From a virus, in the IMG/VR virus record IMGVR_UViG_3300005663_001084, positions 24,929 through 88,928 of that record: a stretch of DNA of 64,000 nt; one strand, given 5' to 3'. This document shows positions 6,104 to 58,166 of the stretch, piece after piece. A program made the position numbers and the translations under genes. The notes below the pieces were generated by a model. The model made no database searches. It was not told the origin of the DNA and was given only the letters and a program-made list of their open reading frames with translations. Position 1 is the stretch's first letter. Every line of letters starts with the position of its first letter.

Positions 6104-6592
6104 TTACTCCTCAAGAATCTCCGGGTCGTCCAGAACCAAGCCGACGGCGACCCCGGCGGCCAGCCCCCACTTGAACTCGTCCATAAACTCAGGCATCTCA
6201 GCGTCACGCGCGAGAAGATCCGTCTGCGGGTACACCGCTTCAAGCGCATCGAACATCCGGATCATCGCCAAACTTTGCTTGGCGTCCGGCCCGTACAGCC
6301 CGATCCCGTTGAGGCTAAGGCGAACCATGTCGAGCGCAGCTTCGATGATGTGGGTAGTCGCCCTGTCCCCGTACTGCTCACGGAATGCCTGCATCGCCTT
6401 CTCAGCGACCTGGATTACCATCTTCTTCCCGCTGGTCAAGGTGACGATCCGGCACGTGGACGGCAGGACTAAGTTCCCGTCAGCGTCAAAAGATGACTGG
6501 TTGAGCTTGCAATCCCACAGAGCGATGATCCGCTCGAAGTCCTTCAGCGTGAAAGTGAGGGGGTTAGTGGTATCAGCCGCTGTACCGCTCAT
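6104..6592 (-). CDS. hypothetical protein
   Basis: ORF, ATGA-coupled to its downstream gene. Confidence 0.5.
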   Translation of the reverse strand: MSGTAADTTNPLTFTLKDFERIIALWDCKLNQSSFDADGNLVLPSTCRIVTLTSGKKMVIQVAEKAMQAFREQYGDRATTHIIEAALDMVRLSLNGIGLYGPDAKQSLAMIRMFDALEAVYPQTDLLARDAEMPEFMDEFKWGLAAGVAVGLVLDDPEILEE

Positions 6593-6771
6593 CGGGGTGT
6601 CTCCTTCTTCCTCAACGCCAGCATACCGCCCGTCGACGAGAGCAGAATCAGCATCGACGCTCCAAAGCCTGTGAGCAAGTGACTCTCCAACGACTGGCCC
6701 GTGGCTCCCAGGTACAGGAAGAACACGGCCATGAGCGTCAGCATGGTGACGTTAATTTTGACCAGCAGCAT
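6589..6771 (-). CDS. small membrane protein (60 aa)
   Basis: Internal start MLLVKINVTMLTLMAVFFLYLG, which is hydrophobic. Confidence 0.4.
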   Translation of the reverse strand: MLLVKINVTMLTLMAVFFLYLGATGQSLESHLLTGFGASMLILLSSTGGMLALRKKETPR

Positions 6772-14437: not shown

Positions 14438-14773
14438 TTAGTTGCCCCTCGTACGCGGCTGCCGCGTCTCGGGGTCCATCTCGTACGTCATCACTTCGTT
14501 GCAGAAAGTAATCGTCCCGCCGCCAGACAGTTTGCCGTCCCACACCTTGCCCCACGTCTCGTCTTCCCGCGAGCCAGTGATTGTGACACGGAACCCTACG
14601 TGTTCGCCTTCAGCGAGAACCCATGATGCCCCCGTCCAGTCTACACCTTCCGCCGGTTCCGCAACCCGCTGTCCCAGCGGATAACACAGCACCGTCTTGT
14701 TGCTAGGCATGGGAGTCTCGTCTTCAGGAGCCTCAGTGAGGAGGTGTCGGAGAGCTTTGCGGGTCTGATCCAT
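14438..14773 (-). CDS. L-family protein 5 (111 aa)
   Basis: Internal start MDQTRKALRHLLTEAPE of ORF 14438..15253. Confidence 0.65.
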   Translation of the reverse strand: MDQTRKALRHLLTEAPEDETPMPSNKTVLCYPLGQRVAEPAEGVDWTGASWVLAEGEHVGFRVTITGSREDETWGKVWDGKLSGGGTITFCNEVMTYEMDPETRQPRTRGN

Positions 14774-14836
14774 GGGCAGCAGTATACCTGGATATTCGAG
14801 GATTGCGAAATTGAAACGGGCAAAAATTTTGTGTGG
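14774..14836 (-). promoter_or_regulatory. class-2 upstream motif with a TATACT leaderless -10
   Basis: The reverse complement reads CACACAAAATTTTTGCCCGTTTCAATTTCGCAatcctcgaatatccaggTATACTgctgcccATG. Confidence 0.55.
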
Positions 14837-14837
14837 C

Positions 14838-15362
14838 TCAGGTCTGTAGGTCCAGGCGCAGGAAGATGGCTTCGTAATTCTCCCGGGACTCGCGATGCGT
14901 CTCCACAAAGCCAAAACGCTCGTACAAGTGGTGGGCCGCCCGCTCGTCGTCGAGATCAGACGTAAACAGCTTGAGGCACTCGTAGCCCTCATCCTTGGCC
15001 CGCTGAATCGTGAAGCGCAGCAAATCGGTCCCCAGGCCCTGCTTCCGGTGGTCGGGATGAACGCAGAACCAACCGACCCAGATCGCCTCGGGCGTAGGAA
15101 TCTCGTTGTAGAAGCCAGTAACCCCAGTGACCACACCGTTTTCAATAGCAACCCAGTAGCGAATGTCGGAGCACTCGTGGGCTTCCATGAAATCGGTGTG
15201 GGACCCAGGACGGGTGGCCTCCTCAAAGCAGCGCTTGATGGATTCCTGGTCATCGTCCTTGAACACCTGCTGCGTCAACAGCATGGCCTGATCGGCGAAC
15301 TCAGCGGTGAGCGGCAAGGGCTTCACAACAGTATTATTGGATCGGAAGGCCTGTTTACCCAA
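14838..15362 (-). CDS. GNAT family N-acetyltransferase
   Basis: Motif VHPDHRKQGLGTDLL (GNAT motif A) and C-terminal YERFGF. A GTG start near 15326, 6 nt after the promoter GATAAT-like -10, is equally likely. Confidence 0.7.
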   Translation of the reverse strand: MGKQAFRSNNTVVKPLPLTAEFADQAMLLTQQVFKDDDQESIKRCFEEATRPGSHTDFMEAHECSDIRYWVAIENGVVTGVTGFYNEIPTPEAIWVGWFCVHPDHRKQGLGTDLLRFTIQRAKDEGYECLKLFTSDLDDERAAHHLYERFGFVETHRESRENYEAIFLRLDLQT

Positions 15363-18426: not shown

Positions 18427-18954
18427 ATGGAAGAGCAGTGGAGGGTTATCCCCAGCGTCCCGTACTACGAGATCAGCGACCATGGTAGGGTTAGACGACT
18501 GGTGCCAGCTATTGGTACCTGGGTTGGCAGGGTCAAGACACCCTACGTCACAGCCAACGGCTACCTGAAGATCTCGTTGTCCGTGGACAAGAAGAGGTTC
18601 CAGCGCTTCGTCCACAGGTTGGTGGCAGAGGCGTTCATCGGTCCGATCCCAGACCTGCACCACGTCCATCACCTGGACCACGACAAGCAGAACAACCGGG
18701 CCACGAACCTGGAATGCCTGTCCCGCCGCCAGAACCAGCAGCTTACCCACACCACGCCGGTCAAGCGCAGCGCCATGGGCGGCATCCCTGAGATGCTGGT
18801 CCAGGCCTGGGCCAGGGGCTGGATGTTATGCGACGTGGCCGCTCAGCTTGAAGTGGACGAGGCACAGCTTAGCCGCTGGCTGCTACGGGAGGAGCTACCC
18901 AACGGTCGGCAGGCTGAGATCAGCCAGCGCCTGTGGTCGCTCGTGATAGGCTAG
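18427..18954 (+). CDS. HNH homing endonuclease (NUMOD4 plus HNH_3 type)
   Basis: Motifs PYYEISDHGRVRRL and HHVHHLDHDKQNNRATNLECLSRRQN. Confidence 0.75.
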   Translation: MEEQWRVIPSVPYYEISDHGRVRRLVPAIGTWVGRVKTPYVTANGYLKISLSVDKKRFQRFVHRLVAEAFIGPIPDLHHVHHLDHDKQNNRATNLECLSRRQNQQLTHTTPVKRSAMGGIPEMLVQAWARGWMLCDVAAQLEVDEAQLSRWLLREELPNGRQAEISQRLWSLVIG

Positions 18955-19176
18955 GCTACGAGGAGGACCAGCGCTGTGACAAGACCCACGCCAACCACGC
19001 CCAGGAATGCTAGGAGGATCAGGAGCCAGAACCCCAGGTACGCCATCATCGCCGCGAAGATGATCTTCTCCAGGAAGCGCAGCATCAGGCCACTCCCGTT
19101 AAGAAGCAGTAGATCCCCACGGCCACGATGAGGACGATCAGGAACAGGGTGAGGTCGTCGAGTTGGGGCTCGTGCA

Positions 19177-20166
19177 TCAGGCCACCGCCTCGACCAGACG
19201 GCCAGGGCCGGTGGGCTCAGTTACGAGGTCGCCGCCGAACAGCGCGTGGTACCGCGTCGTCGCCTCGACCCAGGCCTCAGCCACGTGGCAGTTGGGAATG
19301 CGCTTGCCCTTCACGCCGCTGAGGTAGCGGGCCAGGGCCTTCAGGTCGAAGCAGGCCGGGGTCGGCCGCACGGTCAGTTGTTCGTACTCGCCATGGTAGC
19401 CGTCGCTGAGAACGATCAGCTTGAACTCGAACTCCAGCCTCCACATATCGGTATCATCTGACACGGTCATATTGCCATGGCTGGTCTCTATGACACCCCC
19501 GGCCAGTGGCCCCTCCCACGTTATGGTGTAGCCAGTCGAGGTGTAGCCCTCACGCGGCTCCACATTCATGCGTGAGAGGCCGTAGCGTTCCTGTGACGCC
19601 ACGATCTCCACGTCACCATAGGCTCGCTTGGTCCGCTGGCTGAGGAAGTTCTCCTGAAGCGCAGCGGGCGGGTTGAGCAGTACGTCGATGATCCGGCGGG
19701 CCAGTGGCCGCAAGCCGTCACGATACTGATCCACCCGGTCGATGCTGGCGTAGTCGACCTCGTAGTTGTTGAGCGTATCCATGTAGCCGATTTGCCCGCG
19801 ACCGTCCGGACGGTCGCTGATCTCGTTGTTCACGTTCCAGGTCTTCCCGGCATCGCGCCCCTCGGCCCGGGTTGTCTCCCACATGTCGTCCATGCGCCGC
19901 TGGCAGAAGATCTGGACGAACTTCTCCAGGTGGTTCTCGTCGCTCGCCAGCATGGCCAGGGTCTCCGGCCGGTGGCCCGAGATCCACTCCAGCAGGACCA
20001 TCACGCCGTATTGGTAGTAATCATCCTGGCACAGGGACGGGTCGCGCGTGATCCTGGCGAAGCGGGCCGCCACGCGGCCGATGATGATATCGCTGCGCGA
20101 CAGCACATCTGAGAGGACAGCGTCGGATGACACCGGCGCGTCCGGCAACGGGAATTTAGGTGGCAT
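19177..20166 (-). CDS. hypothetical protein (329 aa)
   Basis: Long ORF on its own between two non-coding regions. No confident motif. Confidence 0.5.
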   Translation of the reverse strand: MPPKFPLPDAPVSSDAVLSDVLSRSDIIIGRVAARFARITRDPSLCQDDYYQYGVMVLLEWISGHRPETLAMLASDENHLEKFVQIFCQRRMDDMWETTRAEGRDAGKTWNVNNEISDRPDGRGQIGYMDTLNNYEVDYASIDRVDQYRDGLRPLARRIIDVLLNPPAALQENFLSQRTKRAYGDVEIVASQERYGLSRMNVEPREGYTSTGYTITWEGPLAGGVIETSHGNMTVSDDTDMWRLEFEFKLIVLSDGYHGEYEQLTVRPTPACFDLKALARYLSGVKGKRIPNCHVAEAWVEATTRYHALFGGDLVTEPTGPGRLVEAVA

Positions 20167-20919
20167 GGGGTGGGGCTCTCCTGCACTCGGGTCCTATCCG
20201 CCAGTCACCATACCGGGACGCGCCACGCGCGTCAAGGACTTTTCGTGAGATTTGCTACATTTTCTTGTGGGAGTTTATCAACAGGTCGTCAACAACGCCT
20301 CCTCCGCCCGGCCGCCAGCGTAGTCAGAGCCAATACCTGTGTAGCATACGTCCAGTCTCACCGGGGTGGAGCGGAGGAGGGGCCAACGAAGTGTTCAGAA
20401 ACTCGCGGAAATCTCGCGTGCCAGCGTGACCCCTCGCACCCCCGACACTTATCTTCTGTCTATGTGTAGGCTATCACTACACTTAGTTGTGTAACACGTT
20501 ACATTGCTACATATAGCATGCTACATCCTTCTCACCTGCCCGATCCCCAGGTCGCTGCACCGTGACCACCCGACATCTGTGTCCGCCGGTGGCGGCTGGT
20601 GACTCTGTAACCCGTTGGCCTCATTGACCTCACTCATTGTTGCACTTTTGTTGCAGTCTTATTTCAATGGGCTGCCGGTAGCCGCTGTCCAAGTTGAGCC
20701 GCTGTCTGGACTGGGGGCGCTGGGCTGTCCACATCTTGGACTGCCAGCTTATCCACATACTGTCAACATGACCATGTCGTTATGGCGCAGTGACACACCT
20801 AACGCATCCCAATCCAGTTCAATTTGGAGCCTATTATTTACATTGAGCCGTTGTTGTTGCAGTTATTTACAGTTACTGCGTTGAGGGCACCGGCCGCACG
20901 GCGGCCCGGCCCATGGGAG

Positions 20920-20970
20920 GGTGGGAGGATTTACATGACCAAAAAGCCGTCCGAATCCGATAATACCTGT
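20920..20970 (+). promoter_or_regulatory. class-1 conserved leaderless promoter
   Basis: ttaCATGACCAAAAAGCCgTCCgaATCCGATAATAcctgtATG. It lies inside track ORF 20824..21969. Confidence 0.6.
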
Positions 20971-21969
20971 ATGACCACCGCAGCGACCACCGACGTAGAC
21001 ACGCTCTTCAACCGGTTCGCCAAGATGGCCTCGGACACGTTCAAGCCCACCGGCCTGTACCCGGACAGTGCAGTGCTGTCGATGCTTCAGCGGGCTGAGG
21101 TGTTCTGCTTCCCCTCCATGCTCACCGCTGAAGAGAGGCCCGAAAGCGCCACGATCCTGAAGACTCGCCTGCCCCATAAGGCCTGTGCTATGGTCTCCCC
21201 TCGGGCAGTCACAGTGTTCGGTGGTCAAACCTTACACCACGGTCGCCAAGGCATCGATATCGATACAATCGAGAACCTGGACTCAGCGTGGGGTGCTAGG
21301 CTCAAGCGAATCGCTGACAGTACGCAAACAGATCTCAACACGAGTCTCGACAGCGTAAAGCTCTGGACAGGGTTCGACTCTGTCGTCATGTACTACCCGG
21401 GCGAGAAGACGAGTGGCGACCTGTTGGCCTACGGGTGGGCGTTGCTGGTTGAGGACGACACCAGTGGTGGTGCAACGAGGATAATCATGCCGCCAAAAGT
21501 GGTGATCATGCGTACCGGCAGGAAGCCCGAGCTACTGGTGAGCGACAGGCAGGACCACGGGATGTCTCATCAGGACGTTAAACTCGTGATAGAGAGCATG
21601 GAGCGCCACGCCATGATCGGTATGGGAGAGGTGGCTGTAGCCTCCGCTCCAATCAGTCGTGTCGTCCTGCGGGAACGTCCTGTCAAGAAGCCCAAGCGTC
21701 CTAGCCGGTACATCGGCCGGGTGGGCGAGAAGCCGAGGACCATCCTCATCGATCCCAGTAACCGTGAGTCCATTCAATACGTTGGTTTGGGTGGGCATCG
21801 TGGTCCGCTGCTCGAAGGCCACAAGCGCCGTGGCCACCACCGGACTTACCGGTCTGAGCGCTATAAGAAGATGCGGGGCAAAACCGCCTGGGTAAAGCCG
21901 ACGTGGATCGGACCCCGAAACTGGACGGACCATGGACGCGTCTACATCGTACAGGTAGTAGGAGGATGA
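20971..21969 (+). CDS. hypothetical protein (332 aa)
   Basis: Start moved to MTTAATTDV because a leaderless promoter ends 6 nt upstream. The first 49 codons of the track ORF are the promoter read through. Confidence 0.55.
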   Translation: MTTAATTDVDTLFNRFAKMASDTFKPTGLYPDSAVLSMLQRAEVFCFPSMLTAEERPESATILKTRLPHKACAMVSPRAVTVFGGQTLHHGRQGIDIDTIENLDSAWGARLKRIADSTQTDLNTSLDSVKLWTGFDSVVMYYPGEKTSGDLLAYGWALLVEDDTSGGATRIIMPPKVVIMRTGRKPELLVSDRQDHGMSHQDVKLVIESMERHAMIGMGEVAVASAPISRVVLRERPVKKPKRPSRYIGRVGEKPRTILIDPSNRESIQYVGLGGHRGPLLEGHKRRGHHRTYRSERYKKMRGKTAWVKPTWIGPRNWTDHGRVYIVQVVGG

Positions 21970-21973
21970 CAAC

Positions 21974-22276
21974 GTGACTGAGATCAACTGGCGTAGTGCC
22001 GACGAGCACATGATTGCTGATGTGGATGACGTGAAGCTGACCGCCTACAACCCTATCAACCAGTCTGCCTGGAACGTGGTGGCCAAGCGCCCCGCGTTCG
22101 AGGTCGACTACGATGATGTGAAGCGGCAGAGGATTCAGGAAGTCGAAGTCACGATGAAGGTCGTTGCTCAGGGTGCCGACACCGAGTCCCTGAACAGTGT
22201 GGGGCAGCGGGCTCTGGATGCTCTGGAAGGGATGCGCCGCCGTCTGGAGACCGATGTTACTACGGTAGGCGTGTGA
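21974..22276 (+). CDS. hypothetical protein
   Basis: ORF following 20971..21969. GGAGGATGA lies upstream. Confidence 0.45.
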   Translation: MTEINWRSADEHMIADVDDVKLTAYNPINQSAWNVVAKRPAFEVDYDDVKRQRIQEVEVTMKVVAQGADTESLNSVGQRALDALEGMRRRLETDVTTVGV

Positions 22277-22292
22277 GGGTCAGAGGCGGGTA

Positions 22293-22709
22293 CTACCGGC
22301 CAGTAACTACGTAGCGGCTCTTGAGTTCGTCCCCGTCAACACTGGGATGGCTGTAGTAGACGCCTCCCTCGGAGGTGTACAGATCCACGTCGAGGGTACT
22401 GGTGAACTGGTCTACCGTAGGATCTAGGATGTGACTGCCGACGATCACCCATGTGTGGTCCCACTCCTCAAGCTCCTCGAATCCGGGCCGGTCTCCTGTG
22501 ACTGTGATGAACTGGCCGCCTTGGATCTTTGCCTGGATTCCTTTGGCGCGGAGAAGTTTGACGAGTCCCTCGGCGGTCTCGCTGCAATCCCCGAACTGGG
22601 CAACGTCGCACACGAACTGCTTACGGGCCTGCTTGGCAAGATCAATGGTGGCGTCCGTGATCGACTCAGTGAGCATCCTGCGTATGACTGTTCTGGTGGA
22701 GTCCATCAC
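22293..22709 (-). CDS. L-family protein 8
   Basis: N-terminus MMDSTRTVIRRMLTESI. Confidence 0.65.
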   Translation of the reverse strand: MMDSTRTVIRRMLTESITDATIDLAKQARKQFVCDVAQFGDCSETAEGLVKLLRAKGIQAKIQGGQFITVTGDRPGFEELEEWDHTWVIVGSHILDPTVDQFTSTLDVDLYTSEGGVYYSHPSVDGDELKSRYVVTGR

Positions 22710-24721: not shown

Positions 24722-24964
24722 TCATGCCGTCACGCCCATCTCCTTCAGCTTTTCAAAGACATCCTCGGGGATCTTCTCCCAGAAGACGATGTGCCGGAGC
24801 TTGTAGCCGCCCTGCTGAGGTTTATGGAGCCAGAGCAGCGGGTGCTTGCTAGTGATGAGGCTGCGGAAGGCGGGGCCTTGGACATGCCCGCCGTGGTCAG
24901 GCGTGCTCAGGTAGTACTGCGTCTCTTCGGTGTAGCAGACGTAGTATCGGGTCCGGCTGGGCAT
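24722..24964 (-). CDS. hypothetical protein
   Basis: ORF. Confidence 0.4.
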   Translation of the reverse strand: MPSRTRYYVCYTEETQYYLSTPDHGGHVQGPAFRSLITSKHPLLWLHKPQQGGYKLRHIVFWEKIPEDVFEKLKEMGVTA

Positions 24965-31370: not shown

Positions 31371-31626
31371 CGGTTGACTCCTGCGGCTCGAACAAAGCGC
31401 TGGTCACGATCTCCTTCACCGCGCTCACGTTACCCATGATGACGTAGTGGCGGGCGCAGATCAGGGCGTGCCGGAGCCGGTTGATCTCGTTGACGCACTC
31501 CTTCATGTCGACGGTGTAGGTATTCTCCCAGTGGCCATCATCCGGGTCCACCGTGGCCACGAACTTCTGGTGCTCCCGCAGGCGCTTCAAGGTCATCAGG
31601 GCTGGGGTTCCTTGCTCCATGACCAT
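31360..31626 (-). CDS. hypothetical protein
   Basis: The ATG lies 6 nt after the GATAAT of a class-1 promoter. Confidence 0.5.
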   Translation of the reverse strand: MVMEQGTPALMTLKRLREHQKFVATVDPDDGHWENTYTVDMKECVNEINRLRHALICARHYVIMGNVSAVKEIVTSALFEPQESTDGH

Positions 31627-31665
31627 ATTATCGGATCGGCAGGGCAGTTTGCCCAGAATTTCTTG
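31627..31665 (-). promoter_or_regulatory. class-1 leaderless promoter, minus-strand member of a divergent pair
   Basis: The reverse complement reads aaattCTGGGCAAActGCCcTgCCgATCCGATAATatggtcATG. Confidence 0.6.
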
Positions 31666-31698
31666 CCCAAATAGCCCTCTGAATCCGATAATACAGGC
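31650..31698 (+). promoter_or_regulatory. class-1 leaderless promoter, plus-strand member of a divergent pair
   Basis: gaatttcTTGCCCAAATAGCCcTCtgaATCCGATAATAcaggcATG. Confidence 0.65.
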
Positions 31699-34856: not shown

Positions 34857-35786
34857 ATGAAAGAAGTCAGCCCCCCGGCGGCAGATGTCGGCGTCCTAGT
34901 CGGCAGGTTCCAAGTCCACAAACTCCACGAAGCACACCTGGAACTGATCAGGCACGTGGTCAAGCACCACGACCGCGTGATGATCTTCCTGGGCATGTCG
35001 CCGTGCCGCGTCACGAGGAACAACCCCCTCGACTTCGACGCCCGCAAAGCGATGATCCAGGACGCCTTCCCGGACGTAAGTGTCTACTACGTCAGGGACT
35101 GCCGACCCGATGACCTGTGGTCTAAGCGCCTCGACAACATGATCTATGAGCACATCAAGCCGGGCGCGAAGGTCCTGCTGTACGGTGGGCGCGACGCGTT
35201 CATCAAGCACTACGAAGGCAAGATCCCCACGCGCGAGTTGGAGCAGGAGGTCTTCATCTCGGGCACCGCCGTGCGCAACACCATCGCCAACACCGTGCCC
35301 AAGACGACCGACTTCCGCGCCGGGGTCATCTGGGCCTCCCAGAATCAGTACCCGCGTGCCATCCCCACCGTCGACGTGGCCGTCTGGGACGAGACCGGCG
35401 AGAAGCTCCTACTGGCCCGCAAGCCCGACGAGGATCTCTACCGCTTCATCGGCGGCTTTGCCACTGGCCCAACGTACGAGTCCGACGCGCGGCGCGAGGT
35501 CGACGAGGAAGCGCACATCGCCATCACCGATCCAGTCTACGTGGGCTCGCATCAGGTCGACGACTGGCGCTACCGCAGCGAGGCCGACAAGATCGTCACG
35601 CTCCTATTCGAGGCCAAGCGGCTCAGCGGCAACCCACGTCCCGACGATGACATCGCTGAACTCAAGTGGTTTGATTTCGCAACACTCCGCGACGAAATGG
35701 TCGTCCCGGAGCACCGTCCACTCCTCAAGATGCTTCAATGCAAGAGGGAGACACACCATGAAGACGAACATCGTACTGGCGACTGA
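34857..35786 (+). CDS. nadM: bifunctional NMN adenylyltransferase/Nudix hydrolase (NadM-Nudix type)
   Basis: N-terminal cytidylyltransferase-fold block VLVGRFQVHKLHEAHLELI. Nudix box GGFATGPTYESDARREVDEEAHI. The 3' end overlaps the nadV start. Confidence 0.8.
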   Translation: MKEVSPPAADVGVLVGRFQVHKLHEAHLELIRHVVKHHDRVMIFLGMSPCRVTRNNPLDFDARKAMIQDAFPDVSVYYVRDCRPDDLWSKRLDNMIYEHIKPGAKVLLYGGRDAFIKHYEGKIPTRELEQEVFISGTAVRNTIANTVPKTTDFRAGVIWASQNQYPRAIPTVDVAVWDETGEKLLLARKPDEDLYRFIGGFATGPTYESDARREVDEEAHIAITDPVYVGSHQVDDWRYRSEADKIVTLLFEAKRLSGNPRPDDDIAELKWFDFATLRDEMVVPEHRPLLKMLQCKRETHHEDEHRTGD

Positions 35787-37140
35787 CAGCTACAAGCTCA
35801 CCCACTGGAATCAGTACCCACGCGGCACGGAGAAGGTCTACTCCTACTTCGAGGCGAGGCCCGGCGCGAAGTACCGCGACACCGTGTTCTTCGGTCTCCA
35901 GTACATCATCGCCGAGTACCTCGCAGGCCACGTCGTCACGACCCAGAAGATCGACGAGGCCGAGGCGTTGGCAGCCCAGCACTTCGGCAATCCGAACATC
36001 TTCAACCGCGCCCGCTGGGACCACATCGTCGACCAGCACGACGGCCGCCTGCCTGTCCGCATCAAGGCGGTGCCCGAGGGCACGCCGGTCCCTGTCAACA
36101 ACGTGATGATGACCATCGAGAACACGGACCCGGCCTGCTACTGGCTGACCAACCACCTGGAGACGATCCTCACGCACGTGTGGTACCCGTCCACCGTGGC
36201 CACGCAGAGCCGGGAGGCCAAGCGGATCTGCAAGAGGTACCTCGAAGAGACTGCCGAGTCCGCTGGCGGCCTGGACTTCATGCTGCACGACTTCGGCTAC
36301 CGTGGCGTGTCGTCGGTGGAGTCGGCTGGCCTCGGCGGCGCTGGTCACCTCGTCAACTTCCACGGCACTGACACCATCGCGGCGATGGAACTGCTGCGTC
36401 AGTACTACGATGCCGACGTACCCGCGTTCAGCGTACCGGCCACCGAACACAGCGTGATGACCGCGCACGGTGCAGACGGTGAGAACTGGGTGCTGTCGCA
36501 ACTGCTCGATGCCTACCCTACCGGCATCCTGTCCATCGTGATCGACTCGTACGACTACCGGAAGTTCATCAAGATGGCAGGCACGACGTTCAAGGATCGC
36601 ATCCTTGCCCGCGACGGCAAGGTCGTCTTCCGTCCCGACAGCGGAGATCCGTGCGAGGTGACACTGGAGGTCCTGGAACTGCTGGGCGAGTACTTCGGGT
36701 CAGCCGACGGTAAGCCCGGCTACAAGATCCTGCACCCCCAGGTCGGCGTGATCTGGGGCGATGGCATCGATCTCGAAGACATGGAGCGCATCCTGGCCGA
36801 CATCACCTACGCGGGTTGGAGCGCCGAGAACATGGTGTTCGGCATGGGCGGCGGCCTGCTCCAGAAAGTCAACCGCGACATCCAGCGCTTCGCGTTCAAG
36901 AGCAGCTACCAGGAGCGCGGCGGCGAAGGCCACGACATCTTCAAGGAGCCCATCGACAAGACCAAGACCAGCAAGAAGGGCCGACTGAAGCTGGTGCGCC
37001 TCGAAGGCGCGCACGGCTCCACGCTGACCACCGTCGGCATCGATGATCCACGCGAGGACCTGCTGGAGACGGTCTTCGAGGGCGGTCAGGTCCTGAAACG
37101 TTACAGCCTGGACGAGATCCGCGCGAGAGCAGCACTGTAA
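35758..37140 (+). CDS. nadV: nicotinamide phosphoribosyltransferase (NAMPT/NadV)
   Basis: MKTNIVLATDSYKLTHWNQYP...FGYRGVSS...HGTDT. It is co-linear with the NAMPT family throughout. The track ORF 35146..37140 is over-extended into the nadM alternate frame. Confidence 0.85.
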   Translation: MKTNIVLATDSYKLTHWNQYPRGTEKVYSYFEARPGAKYRDTVFFGLQYIIAEYLAGHVVTTQKIDEAEALAAQHFGNPNIFNRARWDHIVDQHDGRLPVRIKAVPEGTPVPVNNVMMTIENTDPACYWLTNHLETILTHVWYPSTVATQSREAKRICKRYLEETAESAGGLDFMLHDFGYRGVSSVESAGLGGAGHLVNFHGTDTIAAMELLRQYYDADVPAFSVPATEHSVMTAHGADGENWVLSQLLDAYPTGILSIVIDSYDYRKFIKMAGTTFKDRILARDGKVVFRPDSGDPCEVTLEVLELLGEYFGSADGKPGYKILHPQVGVIWGDGIDLEDMERILADITYAGWSAENMVFGMGGGLLQKVNRDIQRFAFKSSYQERGGEGHDIFKEPIDKTKTSKKGRLKLVRLEGAHGSTLTTVGIDDPREDLLETVFEGGQVLKRYSLDEIRARAAL

Positions 37141-50885: not shown

Positions 50886-51094
50886 CCTGGGGATCTCCCA
50901 GGTCGACCTGCGCCCCCGGCCATCGGCGCATTGAGGTGTGTACCAAAATGGCAGCAGACCAAAATGATGCTGACAAAGACGTTATAAAGTTTTCCCCAAT
51001 CCTTGAACACGGTTATCCCCATGATGAGTTACGCGACCTAGCAGAGTTCCGGCAGAAAGTGCTGGCCAGCCTTATGATCAAGCCGTGGCAGATT

Positions 51095-51136
51095 TTTCCT
51101 GACCGATTTAGTCCTCCCAATCCGATAATACATAGT
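51095..51136 (+). promoter_or_regulatory. class-1 conserved promoter inside track ORF 50882..51355
   Basis: tttcCTGACCGAtTTAGtCCtCCcaATCCGATAATAcatagtATG. It sits in a roughly 240-bp AT-rich stretch. Confidence 0.55.
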
Positions 51137-51653: not shown

Positions 51654-52105
51654 TGGGCGACTACGACGGACCCCCGATGATCCGCGCAGACGTGCGAATC
51701 AAGGGTTTTCAGATAAGCATCATGCGTGCGCTGAGCGAGGAGGTGCGGCCCTTCGCCGAGGACATCCAGCGGCAGGTCGAGCACGCGATCCAGAACATGG
51801 ATCTGGAAAAAGAGCTTGCGGATGTCGTCTCTTACCAAGCCAAAGAAACCATCCGGGACATGGTCAAGCGCCAGTTCCGCGACACCATCCACCAGGAGAA
51901 GTGGGAACAGAAGTTCCAGGCTCTCGTCGAGGAGTACGCCGACAAGTACCTGAACGAACTCGTCGAGGCAGAGGTTAAGCACCGAGTCCGAGACACCGTG
52001 TACAGCGTGATAGGCACGAAAATGCGCGCCACGCTCGGAGAGAAGGTCGAAACCTACGTCAAGGAACTGCTACATGACTCGGAAGGAAGCGGTCAGCCTG
52101 ATTAA
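51653..52105 (+). CDS. hypothetical protein
   Basis: ORF, ATGA-coupled. Confidence 0.5.
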   Translation: MGDYDGPPMIRADVRIKGFQISIMRALSEEVRPFAEDIQRQVEHAIQNMDLEKELADVVSYQAKETIRDMVKRQFRDTIHQEKWEQKFQALVEEYADKYLNELVEAEVKHRVRDTVYSVIGTKMRATLGEKVETYVKELLHDSEGSGQPD

Positions 52106-57750: not shown

Positions 57751-57758
57751 AGTGCTAC

Positions 57759-58166
57759 ATGGACGATGAAATACTACAGCGCGAAGTGACCCTGGCCCTG
57801 GAGAAGGAACTCCAGGGCTATCAAAGCACGGTTGACCTGCTGAAGCAGGGCTTGAAGGAGGCCAAGAACCGGGCCAACATCAAGTTCAACGTGCACCTCC
57901 GCTGCATATGGGCCGACCACGGCGGCAGGGACGCCAAGGCCGAGCGCACCCGGGACCTGGAGAAGGCTCTCAAGAACGCGGTCACCCGTTACCTCAAGAT
58001 CAACAAGCGGTCCGATGTCCAGGCCCAGTGGCAGGTCACGTTCCAGCTTCCCTGCGGAGCAGGCGGGAAGGTCCCCGACAAAGTATGGAAGCCTCTCGCC
58101 ATCAAGGTGCTGGAGAAGTACGCACCCAGTACGTCCAGCTTGCAGCGTTGGAAGGGTGAGCTATGA
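57759..58166 (+). CDS. hypothetical protein
   Basis: ORF. Confidence 0.5.
   Translation: MDDEILQREVTLALEKELQGYQSTVDLLKQGLKEAKNRANIKFNVHLRCIWADHGGRDAKAERTRDLEKALKNAVTRYLKINKRSDVQAQWQVTFQLPCGAGGKVPDKVWKPLAIKVLEKYAPSTSSLQRWKGEL

Follow-up and report, generated by a model that had tools for sequence, protein, structure and literature searches.

The window analysed here is a 64,000-nucleotide stretch of viral DNA (IMG/VR record IMGVR_UViG_3300005663_001084, positions 24,929 to 88,928), and our subject within it is the gap at 20167-20970, which separates two divergent genes reading from ATG 20166 on the minus strand and from ATG 20971 on the plus strand. The gap is a real, conserved and modular non-coding control region, and it probably serves a large uncultivated phage as a composite, bidirectional region of transcription control, built from promoter and operator elements.

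In the arrangement that we favour, a host-type sigma-70 promoter (P_sig; TTGACG, 17 bp, TATGGT) would fire leftwards from ~20199 into an operon headed by a phage-encoded sigma factor resembling those of extracytoplasmic function (ECF), under the control of a conserved core at 20167-20485. The 17-bp palindrome in the promoter spacer would most likely serve as the operator for a dimeric regulator, an A-rich invariant block and two phased DnaA-box-like sites upstream would probably act as an UP element or as factor-binding sites, and a 33-nt leader would supply an invariant motif and the ribosome-binding site. At the other end of the gap the ~45-nt promoter consensus that is the phage's own recurs and would start a leaderless mRNA at ATG 20971, and a separable middle module, consisting of same-orientation 9-mers and an AT-rich tract, would most likely bind host DnaA. 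The features are collected in Table 1.

Table 1. Features of the gap, its flanking genes and the recurrent class-B promoter in the window.
Feature	Position	Strand	Remarks
Module M1	20167-20485		control region of the leftward operon
Module M2	20685-20880		DnaA-box-like cluster and AT-rich tract
Module M3	20914-20970		class-B phage promoter copy
Left gene, 329 aa, probable divergent sigma-70/ECF family	19177-20166	-	predicted to be controlled by P_sig; heads the operon
Predicted 33-nt 5' leader, GGAUAGGAC..GUGCAGGAG..CCCC-AUG	20167-20199	-	start taken from the -10 position
P_sig: -35 TTGACG, 17-bp spacer, -10 TATGGT	20207-20235	-	-35 at 20235-20230, -10 at 20212-20207; consensus scan
Palindrome GACGCGC-N3-GCGCGTC, putative operator	20217-20233		in the P_sig spacer, overlaps the -35 element
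Invariant upstream block, ATAAACTCCCACAAGAAAATGTAGCAAATCTCACGAAAAG, ~40 nt	20236-20278	-	~-37 to -80; A-tract (UP-like) and TGCTACAT copy 1 (20253-20260)
Two DnaA-box-like 9-mers, same orientation, 2 bp apart	20275-20294	-	TGTTGATAA 20283-20275; TGTTGACGA 20294-20286
Distal conserved block	20315-20485		77-85% identical to L001, L002, L005 and L006; partly recognisable in L003, L004 and L019
Phage-specific stretch	20486-20600		holds TGCTACAT copies 2 and 3 and the TGTAAC palindrome
Low-GC patch: TGTAAC-ac-GTTACA, then overlapping TGCTA/TAGCA half-site palindromes	20490-20526		TGCTACAT copies 2 and 3; this phage only
Block common only to L002	~20600-20680		
TTGTTGCAC-tt-TTGTTGCAG pair, 11-bp period	20637-20657	+	within the block found otherwise only in L002
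DnaA-box-like cluster, one orientation	20685-20768	-	TGTTGACAG 20768-20760; TGTGGATAA 20757-20749 (perfect); TGTGGACAG 20733-20725; cTTGGACAG 20693-20685
AT-rich tract, TTATTTACA twice and TTGTTGCAGT	20780-20880		33% GC over 60 bp; 20-50 bp from the box cluster
GC hairpin GGCCGC-acg-GCGGCC	20892-20906		no T-run on either strand
Class-B promoter of the gap, ATTTACATGACCAAAAAGCCGTCCG-AATCCGATAATA-CCTGT	20914-20970	+	-35-like ATGACC 20935-20940, -10-like GATAAT 20959-20964; score 62.6
Rightward orphan gene	20971-21969	+	ATG 20971, 332 aa; alternative in-frame ATG 20935, 344 aa
Class-B cores, minus strand	1196, 2639, 9575, 12602, 14381, 15343, 17009, 31637	-	
Class-B cores, plus strand	20954, 31682, 34802, 37211, 45761, 51119, 53809, 57734, 59941	+	

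Layout and conservation of the gap

A first-pass annotation of the window had described the gap as an AT-rich non-coding region with iteron-like repeats and short palindromes, lying between divergent genes and typical of an origin or an operator. The divergent arrangement and the boundaries of the gap are exactly as it gave them. Its AT-richness and the sharp drop in GC content were overstated: the gap as a whole has 55.9% GC, the window on average 59.1%, and among stretches of 768 bp the gap ranks no lower than the 10th percentile. Two ~60-bp patches, at 20472-20531 (37%) and 20818-20877 (33%), are indeed among the lowest in the window. Other promoter regions of the window are as low in GC as these two patches.

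Relatives for comparison (L001-L007, L010, L019 and L020) were retrieved via the protein family of the left gene, which counts eight homologues with 52-80% identity and 17 more distant ones from a full hidden Markov model (HMM) scan, ~25 in all among 1.8 billion representative proteins. Module boundaries were drawn from alignments and per-segment identities with these relatives. Identity to the close ones is 86-92% over the proximal 124 bp and 77-85% over the following 171 bp, and since these values match those of the adjacent coding sequence (80-86%), the non-coding DNA of M1 is kept as tightly as the gene next to it. The comparative check proposed with the first-pass annotation therefore comes out positive for ~320 bp. 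The middle 275 bp of the gap are mostly unconserved.

No open reading frame (ORF) is preserved across the gap among the relatives, and the minus strand carries 5-9 stops in each frame. Because no ORF is preserved and conservation is evident, the gap is neither a protein-coding gene nor an unconserved stretch, the two outcomes that the first-pass annotation had named as contrary to its reading. An 89-aa plus-strand ORF (20160-20429), which traverses the leftward promoter in antisense, reads through in the window, L001 and L005. It was dropped as a gene because two relatives break it, L002 by a frameshift and L006 by an interruption. The test for a structured non-coding RNA gave support neither from a known family (no Rfam match for the gap at E <= 1), nor from thermodynamics (neither strand folds more stably than its shuffles, with z-scores of -0.87 and +1.16), nor from covariation (of the 53-60 pairs predicted by RNAalifold, only 2-4 show compensatory change). 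The idea of an independent small-RNA gene, complete with promoter and terminator, was likewise dropped, as the terminator hairpin is not conserved and a fold signal is missing. By nhmmer, neither the proximal nor the distal conserved block is repeated elsewhere in the window.

The leftward promoter and its putative operator

P_sig was picked up independently by the consensus scan. Its -10 element lies 40 nt before the start codon at 20166, and its 17-bp spacing from the -35 element falls within the 16-18 bp of sigma-70-type promoters. TTGAC of the -35 element and A2 and T6 of the -10 element (TAnnnT) are kept in eight relatives, down to a protein identity of 52%, and homologous promoters can be recognised in L019 and in L010, where the protein is 25% identical. 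In L003, L004 and L019 a different small gene follows directly after the promoter and the homologue of the 329-aa protein is found further down the operon; TTGAC, A2/T6 and both leader motifs are nonetheless retained. The assignment of this promoter and of the rightward one to a host or phage holoenzyme, and the start sites of their transcripts, are inferences.

The inverted repeat GACGCGC-cac-GCGCGTC, which the first-pass annotation had already listed, fills the spacer of this promoter. Its arms are identical in five close relatives, and in a stretch of ~40 nt only its three central bases vary freely: the centre differs among the window, L001, L005 and L006, and that of L007 is the same as in L001. 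Fixed arms around a variable centre are the signature of a dyad-symmetric protein-binding site, and we therefore call the palindrome a putative operator, most likely for a dimeric regulator; the earlier suggestion of an operator region is thus supported, with a candidate placed in the spacer of a conserved sigma-70-type promoter. ORFs containing a helix-turn-helix are present in the window. Repressor sites overlapping the -35 element and spacer are common in phage and bacterial repressor-controlled promoters. The palindrome resembles them in that its 7+3+7 symmetry occupies the spacer and reaches into the -35 element, with conserved arms and a free centre, but differs in being extremely GC-rich (GACGCGC) and in being replaced in distant relatives. 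Among the short palindromes of the gap only this one gains weight through conservation; GTGTAG-N7-CTACAC (20464-20482) and TGTAAC-ac-GTTACA (20490-20503) are present as annotated, but individually they are near chance.

The predicted leader starts with GGATAGGAC (20191-20199) and contains a Shine-Dalgarno GGAG within 20178-20186. Its motifs GGATAGGAC and GTGCAGGAG, the latter including the ribosome-binding site, are invariant in eight relatives. Upstream of the promoter, the invariant block is identical or shows 1-3 differences in all six close relatives, compared with 80-86% identity in the adjacent coding sequence. It is followed by the two DnaA-box-like 9-mers, which are found at ~-77 to -96 of P_sig in all relatives and make up the second-best 11-bp-phased pair in the 64 kb. 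A perfect TGTGGATAA occupies the first position of the pair in L001 and the second in L004, and position 5 of the box varies freely. Two other candidate sites were dropped: a site for IHF at TGTTGATAA, which fits the consensus poorly (judged by eye), and a CtrA-type TTAA-N7-TTAA, present only in L004.

The distal conserved block contains GTGTAG-N7-CTACAC and an inverted TGCTACA copy (20340-20347). The three TGCTACAT copies reported for the gap are indeed there, at 20253, 20505 and 20519, with the inverted copy TGTAGCAT at 20340. Altogether the 64 kb contain 5 copies versus 0.65 expected, a count reached in 0 of 100 shuffles. The conserved copy at ~-54 of P_sig and its inverted partner at ~-141 behave like half-sites of a putative regulator. 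Copies 2 and 3, together with the TGTAAC palindrome, are absent from every relative.

The left gene

The 329-aa protein has no Pfam or PHROG match of its own. An AlphaFold2 model based on a 24-sequence alignment reached a predicted local distance difference test score (pLDDT) of 79.8, whereas 8 close sequences only gave a pLDDT of 48 and a model that was not usable. The former displays the folds of the sigma-2 and sigma-4 domains, with an eight-strand beta-barrel (residues ~179-266) inserted before the C-terminal helix-turn-helix. In profile searches a minority of family members, the window protein itself not among them, gave sub-threshold matches to Sigma70_r2 (best E 0.0098), TIGR02937 (best E 0.0029) and several named ECF sigmas. 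Curated sequence-profile thresholds for the sigma-70 family were not reached, and among PDB sequences the profiles hit no sigma factor but just unrelated proteins, by chance and below threshold. Structure comparison with Foldseek recovered the beta-barrel insertion alone from PDB, as lipocalin-like noise, and nothing significant from BFVD; neither database holds a close structural analogue. We conclude that the left gene probably encodes a divergent ECF-like sigma factor, and since the curated sequence thresholds are not reached, this is an assignment at the level of the fold.

Two of the relatives show further features around such genes. L019 encodes a second protein, of 213 aa, with a Sigma70_r4 domain (1926-2567), situated behind a class-B promoter (see below) and without a homologue in the window. 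In L010 a ~45-nt unit with AACTGTCAACAGACAAA and AACTGTCACAGAT is tandemly duplicated (490-605) directly upstream of the distant sigma homologue; CTGTCAACA in this region is also a box of the window cluster (20760-20768).

A recurrent promoter and the rightward gene

Outside the gap, the two remaining TGCTACAT copies (57753-57760 and 52068-52075, both on the plus strand) each share bases with an ATG (..TGCTACATGg..). The 12-mer AATCCGATAATA came to light through the copy at 57753; with up to 2 mismatches it has 20 matches in the window versus 1.17 expected and is the core of a ~45-nt consensus, aTTTnCCTGnCCAAATAGCCnTCCn-(A/G)ATCCGATAATA, also written aTTTnCCTGnCCAAATAGCCnTCCn-RATCCGATAATA. We refer to it as the class-B promoter. 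A position weight matrix (PWM) finds 17 sites, with no intermediate scores. Eleven of these 17 have a start codon 5-6 nt past the core, from which an ORF of 72-332 codons extends; the remaining ones have short leaders with a Shine-Dalgarno sequence. At the former, and with GATAAT as the -10 element, so short a distance to the start codon implies leaderless mRNAs. The TGCTACAT copy at 57753 sits between the class-B -10 element and the start codon of a gene at 57759, a position which hints that it may be a regulator half-site at other promoters too.

In the gap the core (20954-20965) is followed 5 nt later by ATG 20971; the consensus scan flagged ATGACC-18-GATAAT here, and L001 carries the same consensus at the same place in its homologous gap and elsewhere. 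The rightward gene is therefore likely to start leaderless at ATG 20971, as judged from this spacing. The alternative ATG at 20935, which is the start in the public record, has a strong GGAGGA ribosome-binding site and doubles as the -35-like box of the promoter. The encoded protein has no homologue besides itself and no family match. A second class-B promoter inside the gap was considered and dropped, since the PWM finds none above a score of 8. Elsewhere in the window, at 31626-31693, two class-B promoters stand back to back on opposite strands, 44 bp apart, at the minimum of the cumulative GC skew (31-32 kb).

Like T4 early or T7-type promoters, the class-B consensus is a long (~45 nt) stereotyped sequence recurring before genes, but its hexamers are sigma-70-like (CTGACC / GATAAT) and most copies stand exactly 5 nt before the start codon. 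Another parallel may be seen in the early promoters, used by host RNA polymerase, of phage sigma genes. In the SPO1 gp28 cascade early transcription by host sigma-A is followed by that of phage sigmas (PMC13401047). Both systems have a consensus -35 element, 17-bp spacer and -10 element and a Shine-Dalgarno leader before a phage sigma gene, and as in SPO1-type cascades the genome has a second, highly stereotyped promoter class. The differences are that the putative sigma factor here is ECF-like, with a beta-barrel insertion and no close homologue, and that its control region extends over ~300 bp.

DnaA-box-like sites and the AT-rich tract

We have defined boxes as matches to the TTATCCACA consensus, which may not be what the DnaA of the host prefers. 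The only TTATNCACA in the 64 kb is the TTATCCACA at 20749-20757. Its neighbours of like orientation are CTGTCAACA (at a distance of 2 bp), CTGTCCACA and CTGTCCAAG, and the array of the window comprises 1 perfect box and 3-5 degenerate ones. The gap contains 4 of the 8 TGTKGAYAR sites of the window, as well as its two best 11-bp-phased box pairs, the better of them in this cluster.

The relatives have more regular arrays: four boxes, each 2 bp apart, in L001 (1085-1126; 32/36 matches), five with an 11-12 bp period in L003 (690-743), and a perfect box paired with a near-perfect one in L004 and L019. In the window, L001, L003 and L004 together, six perfect boxes fall within ~4.5 kb of homologous gaps, all in the same orientation relative to the sigma gene, and none within ~86 kb of flanking sequence. 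The pair in L019 (TTATCCACA-gt-CTGTCCACA) resides in another gap, of 570 bp, downstream of the sigma gene (6186-6755), and therefore the box module is separable from the promoter. This L019 gap also has a tandem repeat of three CCCCACTCACC units.

In the window as in L001 and L003, the array is flanked by the AT-rich tract on one and the same side, and the tract is 79% identical to L001 960-1071 and 72% identical to L003 566-675. The repeats that the first-pass annotation had noted in this part of the gap were found again: the GTTGCAG type (TTGTTGCAGT) at 20637, 20648 and 20854, and the direct repeat TTATTTACA at 20834 and 20863 (2 copies versus 0.05 expected). Since the homologous ATTTnnnACAG in L001 is the upstream half of the class-B promoter of that phage, these repeats are partly explained as duplicated promoter halves, and the tract may be either an unwinding element or the remains of a duplicated upstream half. 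Compared with L001, the window has 78 extra nt between the upstream half and the core of the promoter, including the GC hairpin, which exists as annotated except that its true position is ~4 bases off. L003 has a GCCGC-CGT-GCGGC hairpin at the homologous place, followed by TGCCCTC.

Two arrays outside the gap are worth recording. On the minus strand at 50990-51033 a phased DnaA-box-like trio, TGGGGATAA-cc-GTGTTCAAG-ga-TTGGGGAAA, has the best 3-/4-box array score in the window; the class-B promoter at 51119 follows ~90 bp downstream of it, and the trio is similar to the boxes that precede the L003 sigma promoter. L003 also has five direct repeats of ATGATCGAACCCGnACC with 69-128 nt spacing (36-422), within at least 1.19 kb of non-coding DNA preceding its DnaA-box array, and to us these look more iteron-like than anything in the window.

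Alternative explanations

Several observations weigh against the promoter/operator account. L002 has a degraded form of the palindrome, and L003, L004 and L019 have other sequences in its place, the ~300 bp of conservation is more than a promoter region obviously needs, and the DnaA boxes are not needed for the promoter region and stand elsewhere in L019, so that they may belong to a different process. The comparison also draws on only ~nine related sequences, mostly short contigs. The alternative with most to be said for it, although we hold it to be rather unlikely, is a host-DnaA-dependent replication origin, possibly besides the promoters, in which DnaA would oligomerise on the phased boxes (20685-20768 and possibly 20275-20294) and open the AT-rich DNA at 20780-20880, with divergent transcription assisting the opening. 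An origin is possible only via the DnaA-box module, as this is the sole origin-like evidence, and it was absent from the first-pass list of elements. The confinement of perfect boxes to the homologous gaps, the ordered arrays of L001 and L003, the constant side of the AT-rich tract and the separability of the module all speak for it. The 2-bp spacing and 11-bp period are those of the low-affinity DnaA arrays in E. coli oriC, where the unwinding element is followed by box R1 reading away from it, an order matched in the window by the AT-rich tract and TGTGGATAA. As in oriC and in the origins of P1 and plasmids, same-orientation 9-mers close to TTATCCACA, 2 bp apart in relatives, adjoin an AT-rich tract. 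The array of the window is weak, however, and exceeds background only as pairs, and it has neither the length of those origins nor a repeated unwinding motif of the 13-mer type; the setting, a giant phage of lytic type, is also different. Pfam searches, which included the neighbouring genes, detected no initiator, helicase loader or polymerase gene in the 64 kb, and the cumulative skew, which follows gene orientation, has its minimum at 31-32 kb and not in the gap. L002 lacks the box cluster, other promoter regions are equally AT-rich, and the tract itself partly resembles a promoter half. It is improbable, in our view, that the gap instead captures DnaA without being an origin, either to tether incoming DNA or to titrate DnaA or recruit it as a transcription factor for the early sigma promoter. 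The precedent is the untranslated injection-stop (iss) region of T5, conserved across relatives with diverged coding regions, which has paired boxes of the consensus TTATCCACA and its variants TTATCAACA, TTATTAACA and TTATCCCCA (bioRxiv 10.1101/866236). Boxes of the same consensus and variant types are paired here, and all relatives have two of them beside the early-type promoter. The model for T5 is itself hypothetical, though, the pairs in our gap are 2 bp apart and not 3, we see neither the 131-bp inverted repeats that in T5 enclose the boxes within a terminal repeat nor any others of such length, nor sequence similarity to that region, and the main cluster stands 500 bp away from the promoter, from which it is separable.

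Conservation at the level of coding sequence could also mean that the block at 20300-20490 is a gene, either for a small non-coding RNA or for a small protein missed in annotation, but this appears less probable still. The plus strand offers a weak hairpin with a T-rich tail (20464-20491), the 89-aa ORF, open in three of the sequences, and a 7-codon mini-ORF (ATGCTACAC...TGA) retained in 3/5 relatives (by eye, from the alignment). Against this, the left arm of the hairpin is not conserved, the Rfam, folding and covariation results are negative as given above, and the longer ORF is broken in L002 and L006 and antisense to the promoter, with the minus strand closed in every frame. The iteron-type origin on the TGCTACAT repeats, which the first-pass annotation had suggested, has fared worst and is now very improbable. 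The excess of TGCTACAT, with 3 of its 5 copies in the gap, and the overlapping TGCTA/TAGCA palindromes formed by copies 2 and 3, which resemble a protein-binding site, are in its favour. The gap has, however, just three 8-bp copies, 252 and 14 nt apart, where at least 3-4 regular repeats of 17-22 bp would be looked for; two of the three are peculiar to this phage, so that comparison with the relatives largely refutes the proposal, and the conserved copy with its inverted partner fits regulator half-sites better. An adjacent Rep-type initiator is also lacking, because the left gene is the sigma factor, and the right one is an orphan without a family match.

Finally, the elements can be combined into a bolder proposal, possible but doubtful to us: the DnaA-box array and AT-rich tract would form a module with which a giant-phage lineage recruits host DnaA (as an origin or a DnaA trap), and it would be physically linked to the early promoter that drives a novel, ECF-like type of phage sigma factor carrying a beta-barrel insertion. 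That factor would in turn read the stereotyped leaderless promoters, at least 17 in number.

Source of the sequence and neighbouring genes

The two flanking proteins match the hypothetical proteins LCGC14_0163710 and LCGC14_0163720 without a difference, and both of these are encoded on one 224,854-bp contig of a marine-sediment metagenome. Hallmark phage genes of the window include several HNH endonucleases, an endonuclease VII-like gene, nicotinamide phosphoribosyltransferase (NAMPT) and genes for NUDIX proteins and nucleotide salvage, and no tRNA genes were found in the 64 kb. We read the window as belonging to a giant phage that is uncultivated. Collections of phages and plasmids (INPHARED, PLSDB) contained no Megablast match to 19000-22500, and tblastn of both flanking proteins against phages gave no match either. 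Scans of IMG/VR with both proteins and four DNA patterns produced nothing or chance matches within coding regions, the promoter pattern had 8 matches in JGI metagenomes, all unrelated, and scans of GTDB genomes with the left-gene protein family and the class-B promoter found nothing.

Among the neighbouring genes, an HNH/NUMOD4 homing-endonuclease gene (18427-18954, plus strand) lies antisense within the leftward operon, just downstream of the sigma gene, and is present at the same position in L001 with 77% identity. On the minus strand at 14447-15326 a GNAT acetyltransferase homologue is in two pieces (15326-14844 and 14827-14447), where L001 has a single 276-aa protein and L019 only a 162-aa first part; the split could reflect either gene fusion/fission or a frameshift. 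NAD salvage genes stand side by side on the plus strand at 34857-37140, a cytidylyltransferase-like/NUDIX protein followed by NAMPT with an N-terminal extension of ~200 aa.

Implications

As an object, the gap is of an ordinary kind, a complex intergenic control region, and the more interesting by-products of its analysis are the barrel-insertion sigma factor and the set of leaderless promoters. What it offers is a concrete regulatory map for a phage lineage known from metagenomes alone, with an early promoter and its putative operator, a leaderless promoter class and candidate DnaA sites. If the DnaA module is functional, this would be one of the few giant phages that depend on the host initiator, and if the sigma assignment holds, the promoter set would amount to a ready-made orthogonal sigma/promoter pair.

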